DNA of 64,000 bases from Candidatus Berkelbacteria bacterium (GCA_037143235.1 JBAWZC010000002.1:47186-111185); one strand, 5' to 3'; positions 3,459-22,395 are shown, numbered from the stretch's first letter. A program made the numbers and translations. The notes: a model not told the origin generated them from the letters alone.

Positions 3459-4688
3459 TTACGCTCCCGCGCTGCCGGCAATACTGTATATGGGCAACAA
3501 GATAGAAAAGACGAGAAACGCCACCGCAGCACCGATGATAACCAAGACGACAGGCTCTACGAGAGTACTAATAATCTTGATATTCTCCTCTGAATTCTCT
3601 TCGTAATAAATGGCTACTTTATCTAAGATCTTGCCAAGCTCACCCGTTTCTTCACCAACAGACATCATCTGTGACAAAAGTACTGGAAAAACAGGGTCCT
3701 TGGACATCTGCACAGATAGCGGCACACCTTTTTCGACTTGTTGCGACGCAAGCACGATCGCCTCTTCGTAAATAACATTGTTCATAATAGTCGCACCGAT
3801 CTTCAAAGCATCTAACAGAGGTACGCCAGCCTCAATCAGCATCGCCATCACTCGAGAGAACCTTGTCATCGCTACATTTTCCGTCATCTGACGAAGTCCT
3901 GGCATCTCGAGCTCAAACCTATTCCACCACCTAGCCCCAGACTCAGACGAGAGCCAGAAACGAACCAAAAGAAATATAACCAATAGACCAAGAATCACTA
4001 CCCACCAATACGAAGCCATAAAGCCGGACATCGCCAGCAAGATCTGAGTTGAGATCGGCAAAGCCTTGCCAGACTGTTCGAAAACGGTCGCTAACTTTGG
4101 CACGACCGATGCCATCATATAAGTACCAATCAGGAGCATAACGATCAAGATAAAGGCAGGATAGTAAAGTGCACCACGAACCTTGGACATAAAGTTGTGA
4201 TCAGCCTCGAGTTTCTTGGATAACTGATCAAGTACCACATCAAGCTTACCAGTGCTTTCACCAGAAGCAACGATGCTGATATAAAGTCGATCAAAAACAT
4301 CCGGATGTTTTGCGAGTGCGCCAGAAAGATTGAAACCTTCTTCCAGGTCCTTATAGACTTCCAGAAAAATACTCTTTAGATATGGTTTTGCCGCCTGAGC
4401 TGCCAACATACTGATTGCTTTGGTCAGAGAGATACCAGAAGACAACATCGTTGCCAACTGACGAGAGAATACGGCTTTTTCCTTGACAGAGACAGTCGGC
4501 TTGAACCAATTGTCGACTTTCAATATCTTGTGCTCGAGCATCATATTGACCGGCACTAGATTGTGTCGTATTAATACACTCTCAGCGAGAGACTGATTTT
4601 CAGCGCTGACTGAGCCAGTAACTATTTCACCCTGCTCGTTTTTTGCTTTGTATAAAAACTTTGTCATAACTATCCTCCATGGTTTCAT
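3459..4688 (-). CDS. pilC: type IV pilus inner-membrane platform protein PilC (GspF family)
   Basis: 409 aa with two T2SSF-like repeats and three TM segments. Syntenic with pilT and pilB. Confidence 0.8.
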   Translation of the reverse strand: MKPWRIVMTKFLYKAKNEQGEIVTGSVSAENQSLAESVLIRHNLVPVNMMLEHKILKVDNWFKPTVSVKEKAVFSRQLATMLSSGISLTKAISMLAAQAAKPYLKSIFLEVYKDLEEGFNLSGALAKHPDVFDRLYISIVASGESTGKLDVVLDQLSKKLEADHNFMSKVRGALYYPAFILIVMLLIGTYMMASVVPKLATVFEQSGKALPISTQILLAMSGFMASYWWVVILGLLVIFLLVRFWLSSESGARWWNRFELEMPGLRQMTENVAMTRFSRVMAMLIEAGVPLLDALKIGATIMNNVIYEEAIVLASQQVEKGVPLSVQMSKDPVFPVLLSQMMSVGEETGELGKILDKVAIYYEENSEENIKIISTLVEPVVLVIIGAAVAFLVFSILLPIYSIAGSAGA

Positions 4689-10992: not shown

Positions 10993-12168
10993 CTAGTTAG
11001 TATTTCCCACTTCCCCGCTACTAAGTCCTGAAATATTTCTAAATCCTGGCGGCTGCAAGCTATCAAGCTTCGTGTCGTACAAGATTTGGATGTTGTTTTT
11101 GACAGGAAAATCGAAAGAATTCGCTATATAGAATCCAGTCAATTTATTATTATTATAGATTTTAATCGTCCCACCAGCGCCATAGGCACTACTCTTGATC
11201 GCCATGATTGGCGCTTTTATCTCACAACCAGCCTCTATAGTCACATCACCGTAGACAATAAAACCGAGCGCAGCTGTTGACGAAGTCGGTAAAATTTTTG
11301 AGCCAGTCCTGAACCTCATATTACCATTCACAATGATTATACCCTGACCAGAATAATTTTTTTCAATATTTTTAAGATTAGGAGCAATTGACGACGAATT
11401 TATCACAACATCGCCATCCACTGTCCAAACCTTTCCCTCTGGATATTTGAAAGTCTCATCAGCAGAGCTAGGGAGTGAAATTGTTTTTTTCTGCAATTCC
11501 CACGGACCAGTAGAGATCGCTGCAAGATTCGTAAGATCTATATCAGCCCCTTCTCCTTTTAGAGTATTAATCTTAGCCACATTTGCATCGTCATCCTTCC
11601 CGTTCCAATACGCCATTGATTTTGAGTCAATGTTATAACTGCCCATGCCCCAAGTTTCGCCATTGCTGCCGTTAGGAGTAATACTGTTTCTCGACTGCGC
11701 CAAAGCTTTGCCCCAATAAGTGAAATTACTATAATCAGTCGAGTAAGTATCCCCGATCACATTGATACCGCCGAGAAAAAGTGCCGGCAACTCATACATC
11801 ACAGTCCCACCGACCGTGGTGCGACTGGTCATCAGTCGTGTTGAACTACTAATGTTCCCGCCTGTCCCATTAGATCCCGTGCCAATGATAAAACAAACAG
11901 GTGAGGCATTGATCAAAATTCCACAATCGTCATCGGTCAATCTTGTAGTATCAAATCCATAACTTGAGTTCGGTTCACCATTGAAAATGGCATAGTTCCC
12001 CGTCATCCCGCCATAATATGTATTTCCCCCACTCACCACCGTTGTCTGCCCGACCATCATATCGGGCAAGACCGACTCAGCGAAAACTTGAAAAGGAAAA
12101 ACAAAAACAAACGCGACAAGGCCAATCGCCGTGAAAGAAACTAAGATTTTAGAATACATTTTTCGCAT
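10993..12168 (-). CDS. secreted protein of unknown function (candidate pilus-associated/adhesin)
   Basis: 391 aa with a signal peptide (ILVSFTAIGLVAFVFVFPFQVFA), Gly/Ser/Thr/Asn-rich composition and no recognisable catalytic motifs. Confidence 0.5.
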   Translation of the reverse strand: MRKMYSKILVSFTAIGLVAFVFVFPFQVFAESVLPDMMVGQTTVVSGGNTYYGGMTGNYAIFNGEPNSSYGFDTTRLTDDDCGILINASPVCFIIGTGSNGTGGNISSSTRLMTSRTTVGGTVMYELPALFLGGINVIGDTYSTDYSNFTYWGKALAQSRNSITPNGSNGETWGMGSYNIDSKSMAYWNGKDDDANVAKINTLKGEGADIDLTNLAAISTGPWELQKKTISLPSSADETFKYPEGKVWTVDGDVVINSSSIAPNLKNIEKNYSGQGIIIVNGNMRFRTGSKILPTSSTAALGFIVYGDVTIEAGCEIKAPIMAIKSSAYGAGGTIKIYNNNKLTGFYIANSFDFPVKNNIQILYDTKLDSLQPPGFRNISGLSSGEVGNTN

Positions 12169-12180
12169 AAAATTGTTTAA

Positions 12181-12270
12181 TACTTACAAGCTGAAGCTTG
12201 ATCTACTTAATTCCCGTAGCCCACGCTTTAGAGTGTTGCTCCACAAGCTGAAGCTTGATCTACGGGGCGA
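12181..12270. repeat. REP-like palindromes (family A)
   Basis: caagctgaagcttgatctac, cacgctttagagtg and a second caagctgaagcttgatctacgg. Same family as the RAYT-flanking REPs. Confidence 0.55.
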
Positions 12271-12315
12271 TTTTGTCATTGCGAGCCATCGGGTTTTCCG
12301 AGGCGCGGCAATCTA

Positions 12316-14064
12316 TCATTCCACCCTACACTGATACGACACGGTCGCCTTGTGAGTAGTGGCGTTCTGGGGAATATCGGAAAAAGTGACCTGACTACTT
12401 AATGCGGGGAAAGTTGCAGCCGCGCCAAATTCAGAACCGTTTACACCCCTACAAATATGCGCATTCGCTCCCTTTGTTACCAAATATTCGTCCGTCAAGG
12501 TATCTAGCGTCCCCGTCATATTTGAGATCTCAATCTTCACTATTATTACATCACCCATCTGTAAAGAATAAGGATTAAACGGAGTTGTCGCTGCAGGAAC
12601 ACCGTTTCGACTCACTGGCTCAAGTGTTTTCTTGATCGAAAGCCCCGCTGGCTTGCCATTGATGACGATAATACCGCCACCACCAGGAGCATCATATTCT
12701 CTTGTGAAAGCCGAACTACCCCCATTAGCTGTAATATTTGCCGCAGCAGTAGGGACTGTATTTTTCCCTAAAACATCGTTATCTGTGCCAGCAATAGTCT
12801 TAGGATTGCCAACTTGACTTGACAACTCTTGACGAATAACATTGCTAATTGTGACAGAGCCAGCCCCCGCATTCGCAGGAGAATCATCAACTACGCCGGC
12901 GCCAGCCAACACAGCGCCACTGGTTAGAGTTCCAGTAAGATTAATGCTAATTGTTCCTCCTGCTCCACCGCCACCAGATGATTGTGAGTCTCCACAACTC
13001 CCACCATTTCCAGCAGCTCCGTCTGCAGAAATAAACGAATTAGCCGAAACACTTAATCTATTGGCACTAAGAAATATCTTCCCGCCGCCAGCACCACCAT
13101 AAGCGGAGCCAATACAATCCCAACCAGGAGCATAGCTTGCGCTACCACCACCAGATCCAAAATCAACCGGAGGAGAAACCAAATCATATGTGCCCCCGCC
13201 GACAGCTTTCATATAATCGCTGACCTTGTAAGGATAATCATCTTTATATGTAGTAGATCCACCTTTTCCACCATGGCCACCACCAGAAGCGAACATAGCA
13301 TTTGGATTAAAATTATATCCCGGAACAACCACCGGAGGTTGACCTCCTCCCAAACCATAGCCATCAGGATGTGGTTGAGCTCCTTCTTGGGGTACTTGCT
13401 TGTCACCTCCTGGATACCCCTTGCCGTCAACATCAATCCTACTACTTCCGTATATAGCAATAGTACCACTTACCACAAAATCAACTTTTTTCCAGCGACC
13501 TGTGCCAGTCGTTTGACTGATTGATTTCGCATATACGTTGCCGCTGCCACCAGTAGCCTCCATGTCGGACCGATTTATCGCACTATGTGTTAAAATTGCG
13601 CCATTTTTCAATTCCAAACTATCGAAATGTCTTTGAGTATCACAGGAAGAATCTTGAGTATCGGTATAATCATCGACTTCATCTGGATGATTGTAACATT
13701 CAGTAATTGCACCAGTGACATTATGTTTGACCTTTACTGCATCAGCATAAACTATCGCTTTACCCTCAGGAGCATCCACGCCGTCGATAACAATATTTTT
13801 CCTCTCACAATCAGCAGGAATACCACCCATGTCGTCGTGGCCAGTGACATATTTAATAGTGCATGTTTTCCCATCTCCACTGTAAACGACTTGCGCCAAT
13901 GTCTTCTTCGTCCCCTGACTAACCAAGACTAGAGAGAAAGAAACAAGCAAGATCGCAAGAGCGCCAAAAGAATAAAGACGAATCTTGTGCTGACGAGCAA
14001 AGAACTGTTTGATCGATACTTTAGCCATAGAACCCTCCGAATATATATCAAGTTTATTATACAA
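12316..14064 (-). CDS. glycine-rich membrane-anchored surface protein
   Basis: 582 aa. N-terminal TM anchor and a long Gly-rich repetitive core (GGGHGGKGG, GSGGGSASY, SGGGGAGGT), likely beta-helix-like. Confidence 0.55.
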   Translation of the reverse strand: MYNKLDIYSEGSMAKVSIKQFFARQHKIRLYSFGALAILLVSFSLVLVSQGTKKTLAQVVYSGDGKTCTIKYVTGHDDMGGIPADCERKNIVIDGVDAPEGKAIVYADAVKVKHNVTGAITECYNHPDEVDDYTDTQDSSCDTQRHFDSLELKNGAILTHSAINRSDMEATGGSGNVYAKSISQTTGTGRWKKVDFVVSGTIAIYGSSRIDVDGKGYPGGDKQVPQEGAQPHPDGYGLGGGQPPVVVPGYNFNPNAMFASGGGHGGKGGSTTYKDDYPYKVSDYMKAVGGGTYDLVSPPVDFGSGGGSASYAPGWDCIGSAYGGAGGGKIFLSANRLSVSANSFISADGAAGNGGSCGDSQSSGGGGAGGTISINLTGTLTSGAVLAGAGVVDDSPANAGAGSVTISNVIRQELSSQVGNPKTIAGTDNDVLGKNTVPTAAANITANGGSSAFTREYDAPGGGGIIVINGKPAGLSIKKTLEPVSRNGVPAATTPFNPYSLQMGDVIIVKIEISNMTGTLDTLTDEYLVTKGANAHICRGVNGSEFGAAATFPALSSQVTFSDIPQNATTHKATVSYQCRVE

Positions 14065-14160
14065 AAAATCCCCGAAAATCCTTCACTTATTATTATAGTT
14101 GTATTAGCAAAACCATGTCAACTATTTGGCGGCAAGCCAGTAAACTAGACAGCTGGCAAG

Positions 14161-14215
14161 TGTTTGAGTGTTTAAGTGTTTAAGTGTTTAAGCTGGTAAG
14201 CGTTTAAGATTGCGA
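14161..14215. repeat. short tandem repeat (gtgtttaa units)
   Basis: gtgtttgagtgtttaagtgtttaagtgtttaagctggtaagcgtttaag. Confidence 0.5.
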
Positions 14216-14225
14216 AAGAAAACAA

Positions 14226-14298
14226 CTGTCATTCCCGCGCAGGCGGGAATCTACCAAAAGGTTTACTGTTTGTGGATTCCCGCCTGCGCGGGAATGAC
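14226..14298. repeat. 73-nt palindromic element (tgtcattcccgcgcaggcgggaatc ... gattcccgcctgcgcgggaatgaca)
   Basis: Perfect 25-nt inverted arms around a 23-nt spacer. A related copy lies at 22296-22395. Confidence 0.6.
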
Positions 14299-14411: not shown

Positions 14412-15743
14412 CTATTGCCTGATCTCGTACCTTGGTTTGCCAAAAGGAATGCGATCAGGTGCGGACTGACGAGAGGTGAACATCGAAGCACTACAAACCG
14501 TATCCGCACCATAAATATCGTTGATCTTGTCCTGTGCCTTAGAAATGCCAGCTATTTTCCCCAAATCATCAAATATACTCAACTGTGAGGCTTTGCTGCT
14601 CGATAAATTAAAGAAGGAGATCGCCAGATGGATCGGCCGACTTTCAAATTTACAGTCAAGGAGAAGGTATTTCAGTTTTTCCCAAGCCGTAGCATCGTCA
14701 CAAAAAGGGACAAATTTTTTGCTGATATGAAAATTACTATGATCGAGAAATGAGATCGAGGCCATCAAGCCTCCTGCCAAAAAATTCCCCGCTCGCAGCC
14801 GATAGCTTGCTTTGAAAATTAACTTTCGCAGGATAGCCATCGCCCCTTCGCGAGTACGAAACTCTGGCGCTAGCACATGCGAGTGCCCAATCGTCTTAGT
14901 GGTCGTCAAATCCATTCGCGGAGAGCTGGTCGAATCTACCTGTGGTGAGCTTGTCGAATCCATCCATGGTGAGCCTGTCGAATCCACCTCATACCCCCGC
15001 AAACGAAAATACCAAGCCCTGCCACAATGTTTTAACCTCTGAGTCATTTCCCCCGCCGACAGATGAAATAATTGAAGCGGGGAAATTACGCCCAGACGAT
15101 TTAGCTGCGCTTCCATCCGCACATTGATACCAGTCAGATCAGTTAATTTGAGCTTGGAATAAAAATCTTCAAGTTCGTTTAATCGCACGATTGTAAAACC
15201 ATCTGGTTTTTGCCGCTCGGCTGCCATCTTGGCCAAGAATTTTGACGGACCCACGCCGACCGAGCAGCGCAAGCTATCCCCCACCTCGTCACGAATTTTT
15301 TTCTTTAATTTCGCAGCTATCTGTCTCGCCACCACTTCGTTTTGCTCGCATCGATCCAACTTCAGGGCAAATTCATCGACACTACACACCTCGAAATATG
15401 GCGTGACCGACTCGATCACCTTTTTTATCTTCTGGTGATAAGAAATATAGAGCGCTGGTCTCGCTTCGACAATTTCGATCTGTGGACAAAGCCTTTTAGC
15501 CTGTTCGTTTCGACAAATCCGCACACCCATCGCCTTGGCCTCATAGGAGGCAGCGATGATGCAACCAGATGGACCAGTGTACGGAGACACACCGATCGGC
15601 TGCCCCCTCAACTCTGGCCGAACCTGCTGTTCGACCGACGCAAAAAAAGAGTTCATATCAAGAAAAAGAGTTGAAAAATCTTTTGGTGGTTGCATAACAC
15701 CATCATACATCAAAAATCGAACAAATACCGAACATTTATCCAC
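14412..15743 (-). CDS. dinB: Y-family DNA polymerase IV (DinB/UmuC family)
   Basis: 443 aa. The N-terminal motif FLDMNSFFASVE corresponds to DinB's DMDAFFASVE, with palm/finger motifs. An in-frame 3x ~9-aa repeat insert (VDSTGSPWM-DSTSSPQV-DSTSSPRM) lies mid-protein. Confidence 0.75.
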   Translation of the reverse strand: MDKCSVFVRFLMYDGVMQPPKDFSTLFLDMNSFFASVEQQVRPELRGQPIGVSPYTGPSGCIIAASYEAKAMGVRICRNEQAKRLCPQIEIVEARPALYISYHQKIKKVIESVTPYFEVCSVDEFALKLDRCEQNEVVARQIAAKLKKKIRDEVGDSLRCSVGVGPSKFLAKMAAERQKPDGFTIVRLNELEDFYSKLKLTDLTGINVRMEAQLNRLGVISPLQLFHLSAGEMTQRLKHCGRAWYFRLRGYEVDSTGSPWMDSTSSPQVDSTSSPRMDLTTTKTIGHSHVLAPEFRTREGAMAILRKLIFKASYRLRAGNFLAGGLMASISFLDHSNFHISKKFVPFCDDATAWEKLKYLLLDCKFESRPIHLAISFFNLSSSKASQLSIFDDLGKIAGISKAQDKINDIYGADTVCSASMFTSRQSAPDRIPFGKPRYEIRQ

Positions 15744-15822: not shown

Positions 15823-16170
15823 TTATTCTTTTTTATAGCCTGGAGATGATTCGATATTCTGGCCACGATATAAATCACGAAGCATACTAGAAGCCACAGT
15901 CAGCACACCGGTATATCGCGACACAGGTCTTGACAATGATTCCTCATCGAGCTCATCGGCTTTCGAGAGCAATGCTACCCGGTATTCCGCGTTTGTTTGT
16001 CCAGGATTTATATCCTTCAATTCCCTTGCTAACCTCATCGCCACTACGCGACCTTCTTGCGCAACTTGTTTTCGATCTTCATCTTCATTCAAATATCGCG
16101 AGTCAATCATATTTTTGCTTACCCCGTCACCCAAAAATTTGCCACCAATCGGGCTACCTTCCCTGAACAT
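15823..16170 (-). CDS. hypothetical protein
   Basis: 115-aa ORF upstream of dinB with no recognisable motif. Confidence 0.35.
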   Translation of the reverse strand: MFREGSPIGGKFLGDGVSKNMIDSRYLNEDEDRKQVAQEGRVVAMRLARELKDINPGQTNAEYRVALLSKADELDEESLSRPVSRYTGVLTVASSMLRDLYRGQNIESSPGYKKE

Positions 16171-16472
16171 ATTACCCCCTTTAAATATTATCTTTTTAAA
16201 TTATATTAACGCATTGATCAGAACAAGAGCTATGATCGATCCCAGAATGCATATCTATTTACTTTAATTTTAACCTATTTTGGGTGTTTTGGGCAAAATC
16301 TTCGTTGTCATAAATATTAACCTCTCCCGTAGTGATTTCCTTATCCTCGCTGAAGACAAGGTCGCTCTCGCAAATTTGCAAACAACTTAATAAATTCGAA
16401 CCTGTTAAATTGAAGGACTACCCACAACTTCAAGCGGTTGATATGCAAACAAAAGCAAAGTATCATTGAATT

Positions 16473-16727
16473 ATGAATCATATTTTAACAATAATTTTTG
16501 GTTTTTGGTTTACGGGCTGTTTCATTTTAATTATTCCCTGGGCAGCATTCTCGTTTTATACAGGACATTGGAGTGGATGGCGGGGCGAAGGATATAAAAA
16601 TACAAACGCGCCAGACTGGACTCTAACAGTACATCAGTTGTTAGAGTTTTGGTTTTATCTCCCGATGACAATTATTACATCCCCATTTGTTTTTATCGGC
16701 TGGTTGCTTAATAAAATATATAAATAA
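16473..16727 (+). CDS. small membrane protein
   Basis: 84 aa with two predicted TM helices. Its stop abuts the next start (TAAATG). Confidence 0.4.
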   Translation: MNHILTIIFGFWFTGCFILIIPWAAFSFYTGHWSGWRGEGYKNTNAPDWTLTVHQLLEFWFYLPMTIITSPFVFIGWLLNKIYK

Positions 16728-16901
16728 ATGAAATACGAATTTTTAACAGTGGAAGAAACAGCGAAAATTCTCAAGGTTACTAAGATGACCATTTATCGCT
16801 ATATCAAGGCTGGCAAGCTGACGGCTTATAAAGTTGGTAAAGATTTTAGGATAAACAAAGAAGAATTTGATAAGTTTTTAAATGAAATACGAAAGGGATA
16901 A
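16728..16901 (+). CDS. excisionase-family helix-turn-helix DNA-binding protein (Xis-like)
   Basis: 57 aa: MKYEFLTVEETAKILKVTKMTIYRYIKAGKLTAYKVGKDFRINKEEFDKFL, the classic excisionase/MerR-type HTH signature. Below the 60-aa cutoff of the ORF track. Confidence 0.6.
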   Translation: MKYEFLTVEETAKILKVTKMTIYRYIKAGKLTAYKVGKDFRINKEEFDKFLNEIRKG

Positions 16902-16904
16902 TTT

Positions 16905-17339
16905 ATGGATACATTATTTTTGATTATTACAGCACTTGGGGCTTTGGTTATTGGTATTCCATTGCTAATCTTTGTTTTAATCCCTTTGTGGTATATATGC
17001 ATTCCAATTATATTTACTATTCTACTTGGCTGGATTGGTTTATTTTTCGGAATTGGATTGGTGACTGTAATCTTCTGTGTTAAATGGATATTAACCGATA
17101 ATAACGACAAAGAAAAAGCACCGACAAAAAAGGAAGATAAACCAGATTCCAAAAAAGCATTTTTAGCTTTTATTACGGTATTCAGTATTTGGGGATTATC
17201 AAATTGGCTCTTCACTGATATTTTAGTACGACTTCACGGAACAAATAACGATTCAGACGGTTTGCTAATAATTATTTTTATGGCAGTGTCTGGCTTTGCC
17301 AGCTATAAGGTTGGGCAAAAAATGATAGAGGCCAAATAG
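16905..17339 (+). CDS. membrane protein (4 TM), unknown function
   Basis: 144 aa, hydrophobic, with a Lys-rich loop. Confidence 0.45.
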   Translation: MDTLFLIITALGALVIGIPLLIFVLIPLWYICIPIIFTILLGWIGLFFGIGLVTVIFCVKWILTDNNDKEKAPTKKEDKPDSKKAFLAFITVFSIWGLSNWLFTDILVRLHGTNNDSDGLLIIIFMAVSGFASYKVGQKMIEAK

Positions 17340-17343
17340 CAGA

Positions 17344-17655
17344 ATGAAATCAATTATTCTTGCCAGAGTATCAACAGAAGACCAAAAAGAGGCTGGCAAT
17401 TCATTGCCCACTCAAATTAAGCGTCTGAAAGATTATTGCAAAAGAAAAGATTTGGAGGTTATCAAAAAATTCAGCTTTGACGAATCAGCCTATAAAACCA
17501 AAAGAGATAAGTTCGATCGTATTCTTGAGTATCCGAAAGGCAACAAAGTAAAGATTGCTGTTTGCTTTGATAAGGTTGATTACTTTTCTAGAGCACCTGG
17601 GGACGCTCCCCAATTAGATACGGTTTTTGCAATAAGAAAATTTCTCAGAGAATAA
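17344..17655 (+). pseudogene. serine recombinase (resolvase/invertase) N-terminal fragment, truncated
   Basis: 103 aa, MKSIILARVSTEDQ..., the catalytic Ser motif (Y/L-ARVST-x2-Q) of serine recombinases. The ORF ends after about half the catalytic domain and lacks a DNA-binding domain. Confidence 0.6.
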
Positions 17656-17674
17656 CTCGATCAGTTGACCATCA

Positions 17675-17708
17675 AAACAAACACCTCACATGTATGAGGT
17701 GTTTGTTT
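17675..17708. terminator. conserved hairpin terminator (same family as 15769, 40017, 42433)
   Basis: aaacaaacacctcacatgtatgaggtgtttgtttt with a 14-bp perfect stem. Confidence 0.6.
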
Positions 17709-17736
17709 TGGCAGAGGCAAGAGGAATCGAACCCCT
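17709..17736 (-). other. tRNA 3' fragment (T-arm + acceptor 3' strand + CCA), possibly an att-site duplication or the 3' exon of a split tRNA
   Basis: Minus strand AGGGG-TTCGATT-CCTCT-TGCCTCT-G-CCA. No contiguous D or anticodon arm upstream. Confidence 0.4.
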
Positions 17737-17777
17737 AATAAAGGTTTTGCCTGTCCTCCGTAGCATTAAATCAATTT

Positions 17778-17851
17778 TGGCAGGCCTTAGAGGAGTCGGA
17801 CCTCTGACTAAGGTTTTGGAGACCTTCGTTATACCGCTTAACTAAAGGCCT
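17778..17851 (-). tRNA. tRNA-Trp(CCA)-like, 74 nt, unusual T-loop
   Basis: Hand fold: AGGCCTT/TA/GTTA-AGCGGTA-TAAC/G/AAGGT-CTCCAAA-ACCTT/AGTC/AGAGG-TCCGACT-CCTCT/AAGGCCT/G/CCA. Anticodon CCA. The T-loop has C at position 55. Confidence 0.5.
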
Positions 17852-17880
17852 ATCAAAATTGATTTGAGAAGGAGGAGAGA

Positions 17881-17939
17881 CCTCCAGCCTACACTTCAAG
17901 CTACGGCCGGCAAGCCGTTATACCATTTAACTATACCCC
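17881..17939 (-). other. tRNA 5'-half-like sequence (acceptor + D-arm) lacking a contiguous anticodon/T arm
   Basis: Minus strand AGGGGTA-TA-GTTA-AATGGTA-TAAC-G-GCTTGCCGGCCG... The acceptor strand AGGGGTA can pair (with G-U pairs) with TGCCTCT of the fragment at 17709-17736. Confidence 0.35.
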
Positions 17940-18339
17940 TAAAGACAAGCAATAAGCTTGCAAGCAGTAAGAATTAAGCTGAATACACTTAAACACTTAC
18001 CGGATTACTTGCCACAAAGTGGCCCCTTTGGGGCTTACCAGCCTGTCTTACTTTGTTTCTTTGTGATTGGTGCGAACTTTGCAAGTTTTGCAATACTTTG
18101 GCAGTTCGATCCGCTTGATAACGTCTTGCCCCTTCATACGCTTCTCAGTATGGTAACCTCTGCTTTTGCATGTTTCACATTCCAATGTGATCAATTTTCT
18201 AGCTTCCTTGGCCATGGATTCCTTGTTTCTATTACCCCGGATTTAATCCGGCATCTATTTAATGTTTCTCTGGATCCTGAATCAAGTTCAGGATGACATA
18301 CATTTTTTTGTCCCGCATAGCCCGTAGGGCGACGTGAGA

Positions 18340-18414
18340 TGGAGCCGATGGAGGGAATCGAACCCGCAACCTTCACTTTACAAAAGTGTTGCTCTACCAT
18401 TGAGCTACATCGGC
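18340..18414 (-). tRNA. tRNA-Thr(TGT)
   Basis: GCCGATG/TA/GCTC-AATGGTA-GAGC/A/ACACT-TTTGTAA-AGTGA/AGGTT/GCGGG-TTCGATT-CCCTC/CATCGGC/T/CCA. One mismatch each in the anticodon stem and T stem. Confidence 0.6.
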
Positions 18415-19010
18415 ATTTTAAATTTTTCTATCCACCCAACAATAACCTTAAGCAAATTCTTGTCGGAATATCTCAAAGAGGCCGTCCCATACTTTGATAT
18501 TTTCTTGTAACTTCCATTTGAATGGGCGTGACAATATGTTTTGCTAAACTGGCTTGTGGGAATTTTCGTACGATCAGACCAATATTTTTTCAGCTCTATC
18601 TCGTTTTGGTCATCGTATATATGAAGCAATAACCTAAGCCTCTGCTCCGACACTCCACATATCTCTCTCAAAAAACGAAGGAAATAACTCACCATATTAG
18701 GATCACTGTTGCTAAAAACAACACTATTGCCGTCTTTCGTGCCCTCGCCCCAGTACAGCATAACTCCAGCTATGCGCAAAACCTCTTGTTCTGGAGTTAA
18801 ATTTGTCAACACATTGCAAGAGTGTCTTCCAAATTTTGTTTCATGCAACAATCGACTTGCACTACTGTGATCCCTTCTGGGAACATTGCCAGCTATCAGC
18901 ACCTGATTTATACGAGACGATCCGATTCCAATTTTATCAGAAATTTGCTTGACTGAAAAACCAGACTGGTACATTTCAACGATTAATTTTGTTTCATGCA
19001 TACTTAACAT
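18405..19010 (-). CDS. HTH-domain protein, possible degenerate LAGLIDADG-type homing endonuclease
   Basis: 201 aa with an N-terminal HTH (FSVKQISDKIGIGSSRINQVL). MLYWGEGTKDGNSVVF resembles a LAGLIDADG/GDG motif. It sits between tRNA genes and its 5' end overlaps tRNA-Thr by 10 nt. Confidence 0.4.
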   Translation of the reverse strand: MLSMHETKLIVEMYQSGFSVKQISDKIGIGSSRINQVLIAGNVPRRDHSSASRLLHETKFGRHSCNVLTNLTPEQEVLRIAGVMLYWGEGTKDGNSVVFSNSDPNMVSYFLRFLREICGVSEQRLRLLLHIYDDQNEIELKKYWSDRTKIPTSQFSKTYCHAHSNGSYKKISKYGTASLRYSDKNLLKVIVGWIEKFKMPM

Positions 19011-19059
19011 AACAATGTTATACCAGACCTACTGTTATGCAACAACTATTTGAGTCGAG

Positions 19060-19145
19060 TGGTGCTGGGAGCAGGATTCGAACCTACGAAGGCATAAGCC
19101 GCCTGATTTACAGTCAGGTGCATTTGACCGCTTTGCTATCCCAGC
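19060..19145 (-). tRNA. tRNA-Tyr(GTA), long variable arm
   Basis: GCTGGGA/TA/GCAA-AGCGGTCAAA-TGC/ACCTGA-CTGTAAA-TCAGG/CGGCTTATGCCTTCG/TAGGT-TCGAATC-CTGC/TCCCAGC/A/CCA. Confidence 0.65.
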
Positions 19146-19373
19146 ATGCATCTCGCATTTCACCATTTCATCACTTTTTCATTTAAACATTTATAAATAA
19201 ATGACTAAATGATTAATTGATTAAATGGATGCATTTGGCCCTTCGACAAACTCAGGGTCATTCGACTTTACGACCAAGTTAATTAACTCACAGAATGGTT
19301 CACCATCCCTCGACCATGAGCCTCTCGGGATCGAATGGTGAGCGAGAGACCAGATTGTTGGTCTCGAGTCGAA

Positions 19374-19449
19374 TGGAGCCGTTGACGGGAATTGGACCCG
19401 TGACCTCGCCCTTACCAAGGGCGTGCTCTACCAACTGAGCTACAACGGC
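19374..19449 (-). tRNA. tRNA-Thr(GGT)
   Basis: GCCGTTG/TA/GCTC-AGTTGGTA-GAGC/A/CGCCC-TTGGTAA-GGGCG/AGGTC/ACGGG-TCCAATT-CCCGT/CAACGGC/T/CCA. All stems are perfect. The T-loop has C at position 55. Confidence 0.7.
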
Positions 19450-19623
19450 GCTAGGCAACTGACGAGCAGGCCTGCCAACTGCTCCGCATCAGCCTATGGT
19501 TGAGCAGGAGTCCCTGCTTCCACACAGTGGAATGCGGGAAGCTACAACGGCGGGAGTGGTCGACAACGACAACAAAAAAAATTATAGCATTTTATCCGCT
19601 TTCATTCAACCTCTGTCAGAAAT

Positions 19624-22295: not shown

Positions 22296-22395
22296 TATTC
22301 TCCTTGTCATTCCCGCGCAGGCGGGAATCTACAAATAGTTGTATTATTCTGGATTCCTGCCGGAGTTTATCCTGAACTCGTTTCAGGGCAGGAAT
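22296..22395. repeat. palindromic element related to the one at 14226-14298
   Basis: Left arm tgtcattcccgcgcaggcgggaatctac. Right arm attcctgccggag...cagggcaggaatgacaa. Confidence 0.5.

Follow-up and report, generated by a model that had tools for sequence, protein, structure and literature searches.

A tandem repeat in the middle of a DNA polymerase gene of Candidatus Berkelbacteria raises the questions of how it arose, and whether the polymerase tolerates it, uses it or is damaged by it. The gene lies on the minus strand of the window (the whole 64,000-nt stretch of DNA analyzed here), and the repeat had been noticed in a first-pass annotation of the same DNA. It is real: the ORF of a Y-family polymerase carries an in-frame tandem repeat with the period of 24 nt, that is, 8 codons, found by Tandem Repeats Finder at 14923-14989 (period 24, 2.8 copies, 81% matches, no indels). 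Its score of 92 is the highest in the 64-kb window, and none of 200 simulated windows (first-order Markov model, periods of at least 12) reaches this value, the maximum being 88. The unit of 27 nt assigned earlier is wrong, the units listed with it being themselves 24, 24 and 23 nt long; the peptide and the FLDMNSFFASVE motif quoted there are correct. Of the span given for the array, 14925-15005, the right-hand 18 nt already belong to the codons of RLRGYE, and at the left the span omits part of the third unit and a degenerate fourth one.

Three good copies and the degenerate one follow each other on the minus strand. Unit 1 (U1, VDSTGSPW, codons GTG GAT TCG ACA GGC TCA CCA TGG) occupies positions 14964-14987, and is followed by U2 (MDSTSSPQ, 14940-14963), identical to U1 in 20 of 24 nt, by U3 (VDSTSSPR, 14916-14939), identical in 17 of 24 nt both to U1 and to U2, and by the degenerate U4 (MDLTTTKT, 14892-14915), which shares 12-14 of 24 nt with U1-U3 and whose final two codons are the conserved Lys-Thr opening the little finger. 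The binomial probabilities of such identities are 6e-9 for U1/U2 (20/24) and 5e-6 for U1/U3 and U2/U3 (17/24); as a control, neighbouring 24-mers elsewhere in the polymerase gene are identical in at most 12 of 24 nt. The pairwise identity of the good copies U1-U3 is 71-83%, i.e. they are 17-29% diverged. In the DSTSSP core, U3 differs from U2 in three places, all of them synonymous. The insert consists of Ser, Thr and Pro by 61%, compared to 18% in the whole protein.

The gene (14412-15695, minus strand) encodes a Y-family DNA polymerase of the DinB/PolY1-like type, with 427 aa counted from ATG 15695. The mechanically delimited ORF reaches GTG 15743 (14412-15743, minus strand, 443 aa), but the likely true start is ATG 15695, as the orthologues begin at the equivalent position; the NCBI protein MEI8143194.1 from a Candidatus Berkelbacteria MAG is identical, with the same 427 aa and the start MQPPKDF. 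The palm and fingers of the catalytic core (15219-15662, minus strand) are matched by Pfam IMS (2.2e-37, residues 28-175 of the 443-aa ORF), and the core holds FLDMNSFF with the catalytic Asp (15642-15665, minus strand) and SVDEF with the catalytic Asp-Glu (15369-15383, minus strand). An alignment of 29 orthologues shows no variation at D29, D123 and E124; in the larger family alignment D107 and E108 (equal to D123 and E124) are invariant and D13 (equal to D29) nearly invariant. The catalytic palm and fingers with Asp and Asp-Glu and the aromatic steric-gate residue, by which the DinB (Pol IV) branch of the Y family is recognized, are all present.

Further downstream, Pfam IMS_C (7e-08, residues 283-389) marks the little-finger (PAD) domain (14577-14897, minus strand), which opens with the conserved strand KTIGHSHV (14874-14897, minus strand); a C-terminal little finger joined to the thumb by a linker is seen both from this match and in the AlphaFold2 (AF2) model. 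Directly after the last little-finger strand comes QLSIF (14571-14585, minus strand, residues 387-391), in which Gln is invariant among the 29 orthologues and nearly invariant in the larger alignment (the family consensus being QISIF). By sequence match only, it fits the beta-clamp-binding pentapeptide consensus QL[SD]LF, and we take it to be a putative motif of this kind. In the family-wide conserved C-terminal tail SAPDRIPFGKPRYEI (14421-14465, minus strand), identified from the alignments and the AF2 model, pLDDT drops below 50 towards the C-terminus (residues 416-427 in the 427-aa numbering), which suggests a partner-binding motif.

The PDB sequences found by phmmer (7yll at 2.8e-33) are DNA polymerase IV, Dbh and Dpo4, followed by Pol kappa, Pol eta and Rev1. 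The assignment of the gene to the Y family and the DinB type, made earlier, is confirmed by Pfam IMS (2e-37) and IMS_C, by these PDB sequence matches and by Foldseek matches to PolY1, DinB and Dpo4. The description of the protein as an otherwise typical DinB is only roughly true: the family is right, but the protein matches all ten NCBIfam models of DNA polymerase IV below their curated cut-offs (the best being NF002848, with 183.9 bits vs 381). Judging by these scores, the protein belongs to a divergent clade of the family and is no equivalog of any curated DinB. The clade consists of proteins of about 408 aa from Patescibacteria, Armatimonadota and Planctomycetota with an additional conserved C-terminal tail. 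The nearest relatives, also of about 408 aa, come from MAGs of Berkelbacteria and other Patescibacteria and are at most 67% identical, the distant members from Armatimonadota and Planctomycetota having 31-39% identity. Downstream of dinB lie two large genes for secreted proteins, and the same arrangement recurs in many loci lacking the insert, so that dinB itself is a vertically inherited resident of the chromosome.

The insert had been placed between the catalytic core and the C-terminal region, with alignment to orthologues and structures proposed as the way to locate it. Such alignment puts it exactly into the linker between the thumb and the little finger. Just past the last thumb helix there is the conserved anchor RLRGYEVD (14982-15005, minus strand; orthologue alignment and AF2), whose final Val-Asp are the first two codons of U1, and the alignment of 29 orthologues shows a clean insertion of 22 residues between this anchor and KTIGHSHV. 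The alignment with E. coli DinB from the PDB search ends opposite query residue 251, at chain residue 230, which is, by the known domain boundaries, the end of the thumb. The array is an expansion of the thumb-to-little-finger linker, and the suggestion of a linker expansion in the first-pass annotation was the right reading, with 28 residues between RLRGYEVD and KTIGHS in the window protein vs 6 in the relatives.

The spacing of 6 residues is observed in 110 of the 117 listed homologues having both anchors (8-10 residues in the others), and in 147 of 160 fetched loci, aligned with HMM guidance down to 31% identity, where the maximum is 11; over all of these relatives, about 280, it is exactly 6 in about 92%. 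Orthologues with the same segment but no repeat structure, which would have pointed to a different explanation, are not found, the relatives having 6 and at most 11 residues here. Small additions of 2-5 residues, rich in Pro, Ser and Gly, occur at the insert site in P0010, P0023, P0062, P0063 and L121, and speak for tolerance of indels here. The expansion as such is lineage-specific, being unique among the approximately 280 sampled relatives, and the nearly fixed spacing of 6 residues argues for selection on the linker length in this family.

The AF2 model, built from 120 sequences, has the mean pLDDT of 87, with both flanking domains above 90; apart from the C-terminal tail, only residues 240-264, which lie inside the insert, fall below 50. 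The insert is situated between the last thumb helix (residues 223-232) and the first little-finger strand (residues 268-274, both in the 427-aa numbering), and about 35 residues separate these two elements, compared to 13 implied for the relatives lacking the insert. The little finger is modelled as beta-alpha-beta-beta-alpha-beta with pLDDT above 90. Residues 240-264 have no secondary structure and the insert makes no contacts in the model; the insert is predicted to be disordered. Foldseek search against PDB yields matches with E from 6e-31 to 1e-22, TM being 0.70-0.77 overall to PolY1, DinB and MsDpo4 (0.72-0.77, by target, for PolY1, E. coli DinB and MsDpo4), with Dbh and Dpo4 also matched, so that the four-domain right-hand fold of the Y family is recovered.

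As for the origin of the array, every unit opens with [V/M]D, a copy of the Val-Asp pair conserved at the thumb terminus; for this pair U1 uses the codons GTG GAT, just as P0002, the nearest orthologue, does. Val-Asp with the six residues following it is the native linker unit of this polymerase family. Since the units open with the conserved Val-Asp, the array probably derives from the linker codons of the gene itself and not from foreign DNA: the source segment would be 24 nt encoding the thumb-end Val-Asp and six native linker residues. This segment was probably tandemly duplicated more than once through replication slippage or unequal recombination, with the copies then diverging by point mutation. 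The graded identity, closest between U1 and U2, then U3 and then U4, points to successive duplications, presumably in at least two rounds, with a third one should U4, the degenerate unit, be a genuine copy. In-frame tandem duplication in disordered linkers rich in Ser, Thr and Pro is a familiar route of protein evolution, and the unusual aspect is the host, a polymerase linker of almost fixed length, known to matter for function.

An origin outside the gene, through in-frame insertion of a MITE- or REP-like mini-element or other mobile DNA, or else through an error of assembly, is extremely unlikely. Palindromic mini-elements do occur here and in related genomes: at 14228-14298, just downstream of dinB, there is a perfect hairpin whose arms measure 24 bp (z = -11 compared to shuffled sequences), and the orthologue L104 has a palindromic element in frame inside the little finger. 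The array, however, shows no hairpin potential (z = 0.08 vs shuffles for positions 14885-15000, folded as DNA), its unit consensus has no further match in the 64-kb window at up to three mismatches, and its unit begins with the conserved Val-Asp codons of the polymerase gene; the first two observations led to rejection of the MITE or hairpin origin. Assembly errors do not produce diverged copies of 24 nt, and separate assemblies contain this protein with its repeat, one of them (L001) matching the window exactly at the DNA level. A slipped-strand contingency site, the other reading offered in the first-pass annotation, would imply frequent changes in the copy number by mispairing, generating polymerase variants that differ in the linker length. 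This is very unlikely, even though the array is tandem, head to tail and free of indels, and its copy number has evidently changed at least twice in the past. The 24-nt unit is a multiple of three and the array lies in the middle of the ORF, so any change in the copy number stays in frame and provides no on/off switch, nor is promoter spacing involved; the units, 24 nt long and 71-83% identical, are not the short near-perfect ones of contingency loci. With no more than 17-20 of 24 bases in common and the longest shared stretches about 12 nt, the copies are poor slippage substrates, while the synonymous differences that they have accumulated indicate that they are probably old and stable. Moreover, the same protein with the identical array comes from three sources, JGI (51-kb contig), an NCBI MAG (126 kb) and ENA (85 kb), and no length variants are present in the cluster at 90% identity from about 15 billion public proteins; this cluster has three real members and two unrelated sequences of 53 aa that the window does not encode. 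The ENA contig (L001) matches the window with 100% identity along 7,332 bases and so adds no independent information, and the three assemblies may share samples. The comparison of copy numbers among strains, proposed earlier, finds the identical array in these three public assemblies; the other relatives available have at most 67% identity, and scans of metagenome and genome contigs gave 160 relatives, none above 59% identity.

With regard to function, the array is probably a lineage-specific linker expansion, tolerated as a passive spacer in an intact and still functional polymerase. Most likely, the enzyme would still work as a normal DinB-type polymerase: the little finger would dock on the DNA major groove as before, on a longer and floppier leash, with the insert being a passive Ser/Thr/Pro-rich spacer maintained at a small cost. 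The linker of E. coli DinB is highly flexible according to NMR, and a role in setting the effective concentration has been proposed for it (PMC10359629). In coarse-grained and MD simulations of Dpo4, linkers shorter than the 11-residue wild type are predicted to be harmful, and those longer than the optimum to leave the time of the inactive-to-active transition unchanged (PMC4929570). For Dbh and Dpo4, activity, fidelity and the placement of the little finger are reported to depend largely on the linker, three residues being enough to change them (bioRxiv 10.1101/2020.06.08.140293). The expansion by 22 residues might thus not be neutral.

It is unlikely that the [V/M]DSTxSPx units form a functional repeat module under selection, acting as sites of Ser/Thr modification, as a docking motif or as a length-tuned tether, in the last case through a lower effective concentration of the little finger, with consequences for processivity, fidelity or the lesion spectrum. 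At the protein level the DSTxSP core is the same in all three units, bar one S/G difference, and the duplication rounds were repeated in the same direction; the spacing of six residues, to which the family otherwise keeps, likewise speaks for a function. A module would also agree with the control of activity and fidelity by the linker identity in Dbh and Dpo4 (bioRxiv 10.1101/2020.06.08.140293) and with the effective-concentration role proposed for the DinB linker (PMC10359629). The preservation of the core, where three synonymous changes are observed vs one non-synonymous (P = 0.056 for at least three of four, P = 0.017 for three of three), hints at a possible constraint on the peptide itself, but these statistics rest on four substitutions. 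Against the module, the array is found in a single lineage with nothing similar among about 280 relatives, the insert contains no known motif or domain of Pfam or NCBIfam, and in the AF2 model it has neither structure nor contacts. Its Ser/Thr/Pro-rich composition is typical of passive linkers. That the array is an adaptive tether, tuned by length or modification so that the core and the little finger are coupled more loosely or in a regulated way, is quite unlikely; if true, this CPR bacterium with its reduced genome would have a translesion polymerase that differs in processivity, fidelity or the range of lesions, and nature would have made its own version of the linker swaps engineered in Dbh and Dpo4. 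Less likely still is a disabling insertion, in which the little finger is uncoupled from the core and the polymerase, impaired or non-functional, drifts to a pseudogene. The linker length, almost invariant in the family, speaks for such damage, and so does the number of deviating highly conserved columns, 8 of 149, with the median being 3 and only 6% of the relatives having as many (i.e. more than in 94% of them); this excess would fit a somewhat relaxed constraint. Still, among the eight substitutions only E89K and E379G are not conservative (the other six being A/S, K/Q, F/V, L/F, L/M, W/F), the ORF is free of stops and frameshifts over 427 codons, all columns invariant across 120 family members are kept past the insert as well, including the C-terminal APDRI..G motif, and both domains have pLDDT above 90. 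As the repeat is old, judging by its diverged copies, yet the little finger downstream of it is intact, purifying selection has probably continued. The pseudogene was rejected as the main reading on account of the retained invariant residues and the conservative character of the substitutions.

The expanded linker has its closest known counterpart in other DinB-type Y-family enzymes. As in Dpo4, Dbh and E. coli DinB, an unstructured tether occupies this position of the fold, bridging the last helix of the thumb and the first strand of the little finger. The Dpo4 linker has 11 residues (PMC4929570), while here, by the same structure-based definition, there are about 35. Unlike the linkers of Dpo4, Dbh and DinB, the one described here is internally repetitive (three units and one degenerate unit, 8 residues each), with 61% Ser/Thr/Pro. 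The best structural match is Bacillus subtilis PolY1 (YqjH/DPO41; model 9a5e_A, TM 0.70/0.72 over 409 columns), and the best NCBIfam models, PRK03103 and PRK01810, aligned over residues 25-426, are also PolY1-like. Similar to PolY1, with its approximately 410 aa, the protein has a C-terminal extension beyond the little finger, but the identity is 24% and the scores are far under the NCBIfam cut-offs (184 vs 381 bits); besides, the clade of the window protein has its own conserved tail, SAPDRIPFGxPRY, and the repeat is present in this member alone.

Growth by in-frame tandem duplication is also known for the Ser/Thr/Pro-rich linkers of bacterial glycoside hydrolases (Pro/Thr boxes). The likeness extends to the composition, the predicted disorder, the short internal repeats and the location between independently folded domains. 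Still, those linkers belong to secreted enzymes and are common within families, whereas here the host is a cytoplasmic DNA polymerase with nearly fixed linker length. As in contingency loci, a tandem repeat in a coding sequence has changed its copy number in the past, but the repeats of such loci are typically perfect, with a short unit whose length is not divisible by three, which lets slippage change the frame, while the unit considered here is 24 nt long, in frame and diverged. In the literature searched, of which the coverage was partial and which thus gives weak evidence of absence, no repeat-expanded Y-family linker was found.

Few elements of Y-family polymerases have been shown to govern their conformation, activity and fidelity; the thumb-to-little-finger linker is one of them, and has been probed so far mainly via engineered Dbh/Dpo4 chimeras and simulations. 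A natural enzyme whose linker exceeds the family norm more than fourfold between the anchors, with the domains intact, offers a ready test of the linker length, bearing both on the effective concentration of the little finger and on the predicted tolerance of over-long linkers. It would also illustrate cleanly how an interdomain linker can grow through tandem duplication of the codons already encoding it. Most likely the expansion is just neutral, and it would then be a minor curiosity of evolution in one uncultured lineage.

Among the surroundings of the gene, the upstream ORF of 115 aa (15823-16170), considered as an operon partner, has no Pfam match and no counterpart beside dinB in any of the fetched loci. 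The Rfam search for structured RNA over the whole window at the gathering threshold yields six tRNAs only. Two ORFs on the plus strand overlap the array (14812-15042 and 14942-15127) as mere mechanical mirror images of it.

Palindromic DNA is found both next to dinB of the window, which encodes a Y-family polymerase, and inside an orthologous dinB gene. In the dinB gene of P0099, an orthologue encoded at locus L104 of a Berkelbacteria MAG (JAPLVH010000009.1), the sequence coding for the little-finger domain contains an in-frame insert of about 100 nt (L104 positions about 3987-4097). This DNA, GTCATTGCGAGGAACGAAGCAATC...CTCGCAATGAC, is strongly palindromic (MFE -42 kcal/mol) and is translated in P0099 as GCHCEERSNLDFKRLPRAEKNIGSRNDNARPLT. 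The homologues P0056 and P0065 have inserts of similar appearance, at little-finger sites other than that of P0099. The inserts of all three proteins look like MITE-like elements placed in frame into a conserved enzyme of CPR bacteria.

In the window, two 24-bp arms, GTCATTCCCGCGCAGGCGGGAATC and its reverse complement, form a perfect inverted repeat at positions 14228-14298; the repeat is downstream of dinB, at a distance of 113 nt from the stop codon. Its predicted RNA fold has an energy of -57 kcal/mol (z = -11), and a third exact copy of the arm is present at 22306-22329. This inverted repeat resembles a REP/MITE-like palindromic element, and it may serve as the dinB terminator.

The region upstream of dinB (about 16400-19450) looks like the remnant of an element integrated at a tRNA cluster. 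It contains an HTH_17 gene (57 aa; about 16728-16901 of the window, called at 1843-2016 of L001, the identical ENA contig), a membrane ORF of 144 aa (16905-17339) and a truncated resolvase gene, of which the N-terminal 103 aa remain (17344-17655). These are followed by the tRNA genes Trp, Thr, Tyr and Thr, with a 201-aa ORF weakly matching HTH_23 (18405-19010) between tRNA-Thr and tRNA-Tyr. The ORFs of this region were sought next to dinB in relatives, and none was found there.

The whole dinB clade shares the C-terminal tail SAPDRIPFGxPRY(D/E)I (window 14421-14465, minus strand), in which A, P, D, R, I and G are invariant among the 120 sequences of the family alignment; the AlphaFold2 pLDDT is below 50 over its C-terminal part (residues 416-427 of 427). 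A beta-clamp motif match, QLSIF (14571-14585, minus strand), lies upstream of this tail. The DRIPF segment is presumably similar to the C-terminal tip of SSB (D-I-P-F), and the tail probably represents an uncharacterised motif for partner binding.

When a correctly translated internal dinB fragment of 96 aa was used as the query of a homologue search, two candidates and no matches were returned, the parent protein being missed though present in the database; negative results of short queries should not be taken to mean absence.

Downstream of dinB, two genes on the minus strand (10993-14064) encode large Gly-rich proteins with signal peptides (582 and 391 aa), and they are syntenic with dinB in many Berkelbacteria/Patescibacteria loci. 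No confident Pfam domain was found in either protein, the only match, to DUF7305, being sub-threshold. A perfect sigma-70-like promoter, TTGACA-18-TATAAT, predicted by sequence match on the minus strand (14092-14121), points toward the gene of the 570/582-aa secreted protein. Directly upstream of it, the 8-nt unit AAGTGTTT is repeated 6.4 times in tandem (14158-14208; TTAAACAC repeats on the minus strand); this repeat could be either a regulator-binding array or a variable tract upstream of the promoter.
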